Shown: one piece after another, positions 1 through 2,459 of the stretch
Numbering within the stretch: position 1 is the first letter of the stretch
How the letters are laid out: each line of letters opens with the position of its first letter
Assembly: GCF_041248615.1 (NCBI RefSeq)
Contig: NZ_CP158426.1
Source: Escherichia coli
GTDB taxonomy: Bacteria > Pseudomonadota > Gammaproteobacteria > Enterobacterales > Enterobacteriaceae
DNA: 64,000 bases
Strand: one strand, 5' to 3'
Program-made: the position numbers

Positions 1-2459
1 GTGGTGAAGTCCAAGTCGATGGTGACCGAAGAAATCGGCGTCAACCATGTGTTGCAGGATGCCGGAATCCAGGTGATCGAAACCGATCTCGGGGAATATA
101 TCCTGCAGTTGGATCAGGATCCGCCTTCGCACGTCGTGGTTCCGGCGATTCATAAAGATCGCTACCAGATCCGCCGCGTGCTGAACGAACGTCTGGGGTA
201 CGACGGCCCGGAAACCCCGGAAGCTATGACCTTGTTCATTCGTCAGAAGATCCGCGAGGATTTCCTCAGTGCCGAAATCGGTATTACTGGCTGTAACTTT
301 GCCGTGGCGGAAACCGGCTCGGTGTGTCTGGTGACCAACGAAGGCAACGCGCGCATGTGCACCACGCTACCGAAAACGCACATTGCGGTGATGGGCATGG
401 AGCGTATCGCGCCGACCTTTGCCGAGGTGGATGTGCTGATTACCATGCTGGCGCGCAGCGCCGTGGGCGCACGTCTGACGGGCTACAACACCTGGCTGAC
501 CGGCCCGCGTGATGCGGACAACGTTGACGGACCGGAAGAGTTCCATCTGGTGATTGTCGATAACGGTCGCTCGCAGGTGCTGGGCTCAGAGTTTCGCGAT
601 GTGCTGCGCTGCATCCGCTGCGGAGCCTGTATGAACACCTGTCCGGCGTACCGCCACATCGGCGGGCACGGCTATGGCTCTATCTATCCCGGCCCTATCG
701 GCGCGGTGATTTCTCCGCTGCTCGGCGGCTATAAAGATTTTAAAGACCTGCCGTACGCCTGTTCTTTGTGCACGGCTTGTGACAGCGTCTGCCCGGTGCG
801 TATTCCGTTGTCAAAACTGATCCTGCGTCATCGCCGGGTGATGGCCGAGGAGGGCATTACGCCGAAAGCCGAGCGACGGGCGATCAAGATGTTCGCCTAT
901 GCCAATAGCCATCCGGGGCTGTGGAAAGTCGGGATGATGGCGGGCGCGCATGCGGCGAGCTGGTTTATCAATGGCGGCAAAACCCCGCTCAAGATTGGCG
1001 CGATTGGTGACTGGATGGAGGCGCGCGATCTGCCTGATGCTGACGGCGAGAGCTTCCGCAGCTGGTTTAAGAAACATCAGGCGCAGGAGAAAAAGAATGG
1101 ATAACCGTACCGCGTTTTTAAACACCATCGCCCAGGCGCTGGGTCGCCCGCTGCGCTTCGAACCGCAAGCGGATGCCGCACCGGTTAACAACTATGCCAA
1201 CGAGCGCCTGACCGAGCTTAGCCCCGAGCAGCGCTGCTCTGCGTTTATCCAGTTTGCCAGCGAAGTGATGCTGGCCCGCTGCGAACTGACCAGCGAGGAC
1301 CAGGCCGCAGACGCGGCACTGCGCCTGTGCGAAGAATTGGGTCAGCAGCCGGTGGTGCTGAGCGGCGACAGCCGGCTGGTGGAGCTGGGCATCACCGAAC
1401 GCTTGCAGCAGGAATGCAACGCCGTGGTCTGGGATCCGGCGCGTGGTAGCGAAAATATTACCCAGGCCGAGCAGGCGAAAGTCGGCGTGGTGTATGCCGA
1501 ATATGGCCTGACCGAGTCCGGCGGCGTGGTGCTGTTTTCCGCACCGGAGCGCGGGCGCTCCCTGAGCCTGTTGCCGGAGTCCTCTATTTTCGTGCTGCGT
1601 AAAAGCACCATCCTGCCGCGCGTGGCGCAGCTGGCAGAAAAACTGCATCAGAAAGCACAGGCCGGTGAGCGTATGCCATCGTGCATTAATATCATCAGTG
1701 GACCCAGCTCGACGGCGGATATTGAGCTTATCAAGGTGGTTGGGGTGCATGGTCCGGTGAAGGCGGTATATCTGATTATTGAGGATTGTTGAGGCAGGAT
1801 GGAAAACCGCTCTGGCGCTGTGGGCCAGAGCGGTATCAACGTTATGCAATCATGCTGATGATCAACACGATTATCAGGCCAACCACGGAGTTTACCAGCT
1901 CCAGCAGACCCCAGGTTTTCAGCGTATCCTTCACCGACAGATCAAAGTAGCCTTTGAACAGCCAGAACGAAGCATCGTTGATATGGGTCAGCGTGTTGGA
2001 GCCAGCCGCTGTTGCCAGCACCAGCAACGCCGGGTCGACGCCCACCAGTTGACCGGTTGCCGGGTCGAGGATTGCTGCGCTAATAATCCTCGCCGCCGTC
2101 ATGGCTGAGACCACGCCCTGACCCGTTGCCAGACGGATCAGCACGGTTATCAACCACGCCATGATGTAGGGAGAAATATTGCCGTGTGACATCAGCATGC
2201 CGATGGTATCGCCGATGCCGGTATCGATAATGGTTTGCTTCAGTACGCCGCCTGCCACTGACTGCCGGAGCAGGGACTGCGCTGACTCTGTAAATCCGCC
2301 GCTCTGTACGTTGGGATTGTTAATCCGAGTAACTAAGTAACACGCTATACCTTGACTCCTTATGCTTACATGCTTGCACATCGTTACGGCACAAAATTCA
2401 ACTGTGGCAAAGCAAGTGCGCTGTTGCGTTCTCTTGGGAAGGTGCGAACAAGTTCCTGA

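Follow-up and report, generated by a model that had tools for sequence, protein, structure and literature searches.

The 181 bp between a truncated gluconate permease gene and an ISKpn26 element in this Escherichia coli genome (positions 2256-2436 of the window, which is the whole 64,000-nucleotide stretch of contig NZ_CP158426.1 that was analysed) are very probably two non-functional relics, brought together in a CP4-like genomic island by three rearrangements, one after another. The site is in a large integrase-bearing island beside nfeF. The local order of genes is L-lactate permease, dld, lutABC, the truncated GntP-family gene, ISKpn26, EcoR124-family hsdRSM, a YeeP-like GTPase and Ag43, and the surrounding island carries further Gp2/YagK genes together with YeeP-like GTPase, Ag43 and integrase genes. 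The region is rich in IS and other mobile-element fragments, these being IS3, IS1414, a group II intron, IS1 and ISKpn26. The group II intron (ltrA) lies within an IS3-family element, immediately upstream of the lactate module (L008:26273-29762, record 791272-794761), and the same arrangement is found in relatives that have no lactate module (L011). The features referred to below are as follows.

1842-2255, minus strand: gntP' pseudogene; of the GntP-family gluconate permease only the final 138 codons are left, the N-terminus being absent (PGAP annotation and K-12 gntP alignment).
2244-2255, no strand assigned: the gntP'/Gp2' junction, 12 nt (TACGCCGCCTGC) that could come from either parent and in which a microhomology crossover may have taken place.
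2245-2340, minus strand: 3' remnant of an inovirus-type Gp2 (YagK-YfjJ) gene, codons about 157-188, with an in-frame stop at 2320-2322 (tblastn and blastn).
2341-2436, minus strand: orphaned distal non-coding 3' flank of a JukA-like GTPase cassette (contiguity in L016, L019 and L020, and flank alignments elsewhere).
2437-3632, plus strand: ISKpn26 (IS5 family), 1196 bp, transposase at 2505-3485, no target-site duplication.
3633-6749, minus strand: hsdR, an EcoR124-family type I restriction subunit, its TAG stop lying inside the CTAA target that abuts the right end of the IS.

The alignment of E. coli K-12 gntP spans 1842/1851-2255 only, at 83-85% nucleotide identity, and diverges completely beyond this point; at the protein level gntP' differs from K-12 gntP at 3 of 138 residues (98% identity, by our own count). 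Both this alignment and the PGAP pseudogene place the end of the permease at 2255, and the end at about 2340 that was given in the earlier note is therefore misplaced by 85 bp. There is an open frame on the minus strand at 1842-2708 (288 aa), which runs without a stop through the antisense IS, the cassette flank, Gp2' (out of frame) and gntP'. This frame is a chance read-through, and it is probably what misled the earlier reading. A 179-aa version of the same chimeric frame is filed as a 'GntP' protein in the protein databases (P0001, 74 member sequences). The interval that is neither permease nor IS is 2256-2436, and it is made of two relics. It had been described as an unassigned gap of about 95 bp before the IS: the 96 bp at 2341-2436 are real, while the left limit was drawn wrongly and the Gp2 remnant was overlooked. 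The coordinate 2341 coincides with the boundary between the Gp2 relic and the cassette-flank relic.

The permease is joined to Gp2' inside the 12-nt overlap, with the two reading frames out of register. L005 and L016 have the same 12 nt (2244-2255) at their native Gp2 3' end, and K-12 gntP, which is a stand-in and not the true parent, agrees with them at 9 of 12 positions, encoding AGGV there. A second version of the lactate module, found in L014 and L015 and mostly on plasmids (32 records), has gntP cut 33 bp earlier, at the window equivalent of 2223, and followed by higBA; it follows that the permease has been truncated at two different points in different lineages.

The minus-strand translation of 2245-2340 matches residues 157-188 of 191-aa Gp2 proteins at 28 of 32 positions by tblastn, with E values of about 1e-15 to 1e-16 (2e-16 to 7e-16) that come from a deliberately small search space. 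Family members from E. coli, Enterobacter and Hafnia were matched. By blastn, 2256-2321 is 94% identical to NZ_CM132249. When 2256-2436 was searched by blastn in 5,426 complete E. coli genomes, the full-length sequence came up in 86 only, all with the same island, and genes for 'inovirus-type Gp2 protein' gave partial matches in 7 other E. coli genomes. These alignments identify 2245-2340 as the 3' end of a Gp2/YagK-YfjJ gene. Genes of this kind belong to the backbone of CP4-like islands, where they normally stand next to an AlpA-type regulator, and the remnant belongs to the same family as the Gp2 (YfjJ/YagK) gene of the AlpA-Gp2 backbone in CP4-57/CP4-6-like islands. Unlike the gene in those islands, the copy in the window keeps the last 32 codons only, has an in-frame stop, and is fused out of frame to gntP'. 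The closest E. coli Gp2 allele is about 96% identical at 2256-2310 and about 57-65% identical at 2311-2340 (own count), the divergence at 2311-2340 from E. coli Gp2 alleles being largely at synonymous sites, which suggests that the Gp2 allele is a mosaic or that its junction with the cassette flank is ambiguous. The heptamer AAGGTAT at 2346-2352 is common to both parents, Gp2 and the cassette flank.

The origin of the remaining 96 bp is indicated by contigs that lack the IS. A 23-mer scan of metagenome contigs identified five contigs with the segment. One of these (L018) has the same arrangement as the window. Three others (L016, L019 and L020), which come from three different samples and are metagenome contigs of unknown organism, not isolates, match the window over 2244-2436 or more at 98-99%; the match stops at 2436, and no IS is present. 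All three continue identically past this point, reading ...gcgttctcttg and then AGTCCGAAGAAAATGACG... (at greater length, AGTCCGAAGAAAATGACGAAACCAGGAGCATGCCCCTGG...). Beyond 2436 they have a hairpin terminator, and then the 3' end of a gene for a 418-aa protein on the same (minus) strand as the segment. In this protein, a JukA-like domain at the N-terminus (PADLOC, E 6e-48) is combined with an MMR_HSR1 GTPase domain. Upstream of its gene are genes for a 121-aa Gly-zipper protein and a divergent 541-aa sigma54-type AAA+ protein, so that the cassette is made of three genes in about 3.6 kb (L016:4741-8357). The AAA+ protein is RtcR/PspF-like. In L019, the cassette is followed by an intact AlpA-Gp2 pair, 95% identical to that of E. 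coli islands.

GTPases 88-92% identical to this one are found in Serratia fonticola (L022/23), in Pectobacterium/Dickeya (L024-26), in a Logan assembly (L021) and in ENA metagenome contigs (L027/28). In all contexts the three genes form a self-contained block of about 3.6 kb, its homology to L016 ending about 110-140 bp past the GTPase stop; several genera have this block with its boundaries unchanged and with Gp2/AlpA backbone genes of islands next to it. In each of L021, L022/23, L024-26 and L027/28, the reverse complement of 2379-2436 aligns after the GTPase stop, with a consensus across contexts of CTTAAGAGAAGCGAATCAGTC.ACTTGC...GTGCCGTAACGATGG, and in L021 the alignment extends to about window position 2348. 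From the contiguity in L016, L019 and L020 and from these alignments in independent contexts, 2341-2436 is identified as the outer end of the cassette's non-coding 3' flank, beyond the GTPase terminator. The block at 2379-2436 is conserved in all contexts, whereas 2341/2348-2378 is common only to L016, L019 and L020 and, weakly, L021, and the assignment of 2341-2378 to the flank is accordingly tentative and less secure than that of 2379-2436.

The conservation of this block could be read differently, namely as that of a functional non-coding element lying after the terminator, for example an sRNA from the 3'UTR, a regulatory site or a boundary/recombination site, of which the window copy might keep some activity. 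The block is indeed conserved after the terminator across several genera, in five contexts or more; blastn matches spanning the gene and the block are 80-88% identical overall, and the right boundary of the cassette is at nearly the same place in each context. However, RNAalifold finds covariation confined to the terminator hairpin, which is lost from the window, and none in the block; a search of 1700-3800 against Rfam (E ≤ 1) gave no structured-RNA match; no promoter- or terminator-like site is present within 2341-2436; and a second copy of the motif, sought at the other end of the cassette as a repeat or recombination site, was not found. In addition, the window copy has been cut off by the IS and parted from its gene. 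We consider this reading unlikely. There is a slim chance that the stretch of about 60-100 nt shared by the Escherichia-type, Pectobacterium/Dickeya and Serratia cassettes is a small RNA made from the 3' end, a regulatory site or a cassette-exchange sequence, and in that case the 96 bp in the window would be a truncated copy of a functional non-coding element. In this genome, nothing points to a present function of the 96 bp.

It is more improbable still that the segment is simply the continuation of a divergent or decayed Gp2/YagK-YfjJ pseudogene broken by the IS. The segment is collinear and in frame with the Gp2 remnant, and some distant family members (P0048, P0050 and P0036) carry the tblastn alignment on to 2397, where 'ILCRNDVQ' is paired with 'VICHLDVE'. 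Against this, the family profile (an HMM built from 120 members) gives the segment -1.9 bits, a score that 1406 of 2000 shuffled sequences reach too; the near-invariant motifs GYAHRCEPK..YRVRGE and M.YILSYL.K are missing; and the segment is clearly homologous to the GTPase 3' flank instead. A Gp2 continuation through 2341-2436 was therefore rejected on the family HMM and its shuffle control, despite the extension to 2397.

The segment resembles neither of its neighbours, as had been noticed earlier: no similarity to the permease or to the IS is present in 2341-2436, and the alignment with an intact gntP that would have refuted a separate scar is not seen, the K-12 gene stopping at 2255. A blastn search of the 5,426 complete E. 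coli genomes (E ≤ 1) returned nothing outside the same island. There was no match to PLSDB plasmids or to GenBank phages; a 24-mer from the segment was absent from IMG/VR viral contigs, and two 21-mers were absent from the GTDB species-representative genomes. The GTPase gene, too, was sought in viral contigs and not found. A three-frame protein search of 2341-2436 in 5.8 billion proteins matched only the island's own chimeric ORF P0001, with no other GntP match to these frames, and Pfam gave no match to the translated frames. That the segment should be a remnant of another IS end, as the earlier note had proposed looking for, or of the permease itself, is highly improbable. Mobile elements do crowd the region, but nothing similar is present in ISKpn26, in the IS of the 47 kb upstream, in L001-L008, or in the plasmid and phage collections, blastn-short against the window and L001-L008 giving only chance matches of 10-16 nt; and the alignment of K-12 gntP does not go past 2255.

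The IS5-type element reported to start at 2437 does so: ISKpn26 begins there with GGAAGGTGCGAAC... and ends at 3632 with ...TTCGCACCTTCC, and is the sole copy in the window. The IS5-family target is YTAR. The two flanks of the element do not match (left CTTG, right CTAA), and other copies in related islands have CTAA/CTAA and CTAG/CTAA flanks (CTAG/CTAA in L012 and L013). A 4-bp CTAG duplication has been reported for ISKpn26 (PMC8023600). Relatives that are IS-free at hsdR (L011-L013) read ...GTTACTA followed directly by CTAAATCTTT, the native sequence being ...ACTA followed by CTAAATC. Read from this comparison, the right side of the IS is the original insertion site, just after the hsdR stop. 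Since the right flank CTAA is native, the left junction is secondary, a scar of deletion or of IS-IS recombination. All 86 complete E. coli genomes with the segment also have the segment/IS junction. A simple insertion of ISKpn26, in which the 96 bp would be native hsdR-downstream DNA and the target duplication would have decayed, has an intact canonical target (CTAA) on the right in its favour but is almost certainly wrong, being refuted both by the IS-free hsdR relatives, whose downstream DNA (...GTTGTTCCTTTTGTTACTA, then CTAA) is unlike the 96 bp, and by the IS-free contigs, in which the 96 bp lead into the GTPase cassette and not into hsdR. A 63-aa 'hypothetical protein' annotated by PGAP at 3467-3658 on the plus strand (WP_306417990.1) runs from the right end of ISKpn26 across the junction into the 3' end of hsdR, and is almost certainly an annotation artefact.

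A complete IS with one native and one foreign flank and no 4-bp duplication is what is found in IS-associated deletion or IS-IS recombination scars of the IS5 family. The present case differs from these in that the left flank is CTTG, not YTAR or CTAG, and in that neither a reciprocal product nor a second IS copy was found. IS-IS recombination does occur in these islands, as seen in CP056566.1 (L004), a 13.4-kb 'plasmid' in which gntP', Gp2' and the 96 bp are followed by a hybrid of ISKpn26 (left) and IS5 (right) and then by mmuP-mmuM-fbpC; the record itself may be a circle set free by IS-IS recombination, or else an artefact of assembly. A further metagenome contig (L017, from 8691 onward) has the window arrangement through the whole IS and then a third right flank, TTAG followed by CAAAGGTCATCG..., which would make it a further IS-IS recombinant or else an assembly chimera formed across the repeat.

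The relics can be placed in order by comparing three states. In state A (L016), the sequence left of 2244 is the native 3' end of Gp2 with its stop, and the 96 bp and then the cassette come after the Gp2 sequence. State B (L019 and L020) has the lactate module and gntP' joined at 2244, followed by Gp2', the 96 bp and the cassette, with no IS. State C (the window and 86 E. coli genomes) is like B up to 2436, and continues into ISKpn26 and hsdR. It follows that the Gp2/cassette junction (about 2340-2352) is the oldest, the gntP/Gp2 junction second, and the IS junction the youngest. The suggestion that the permease was cut short in an event of its own, before the IS junction formed, is thus borne out, L019 and L020 carrying the gntP'/Gp2' junction without the IS; in the window the gntP junction (2244-2255) is 181 bp from the IS.

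The sequence of events that we propose has three steps, each of which is visible as a change of arrangement. In the first, the cassette of about 3.6 kb was brought up against the last 100 bp or so of a Gp2/YagK-YfjJ gene, at about 2340-2352. In the second, the lactate-utilisation module ending in truncated gntP was joined to the Gp2 remnant at 2244-2255, possibly by a microhomology-mediated illegitimate join. In the third, everything to the right of 2436 (the terminator, the GTPase cassette and whatever lay beyond) was replaced by the IS and hsdR. Two routes to this replacement can be envisaged for the left junction, and either may apply. One is that two copies of ISKpn26, the first at the cassette-flank site and the second at hsdR, underwent homologous recombination, in which case the hypothetical cassette-side copy would read ...TCTTG, the IS, and then CTTGAGTCCG...; as CTTG is not a canonical IS5-family target, a former IS copy there with its own duplication is hypothetical. 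The other is an IS-mediated adjacent deletion that would have removed the cassette together with whatever lay before hsdR. The cassette is absent from the complete E. coli genomes searched, and the direct ancestor of the E. coli arrangement is therefore unseen; the cassette is likewise absent from the window.

JukA-GTPase fusions have been described in the Juk anti-jumbo-phage family (bioRxiv 10.1101/2022.09.17.508391). The lost neighbour resembles the Juk (JukA/YaaW) systems in having a JukA-like N-terminal domain with a Ras-like/MMR_HSR1 GTPase domain. The cassette was likely anti-phage. In contrast to the Juk systems, the gene here is absent, the outer 3' flank alone is left, and the defence role of the cassette is putative. 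The slot that the cassette occupied holds a type I restriction system in the window, and looks like a hotspot for the exchange of cargo, with defence genes as the candidate cargo.

The segment is a commonplace outcome of the mosaic make-up of islands and of IS activity. The correction of the permease pseudogene end to 2255 has little import beyond correct annotation. What had been unassigned DNA can now be read as layered rearrangement scars that can be put in order of age, in a slot of variable content within a CP4-like E. coli island, in which a JukA-GTPase cassette once stood where ISKpn26 and a type I restriction system now stand, pointing to a turnover of candidate defence cargo at one position.
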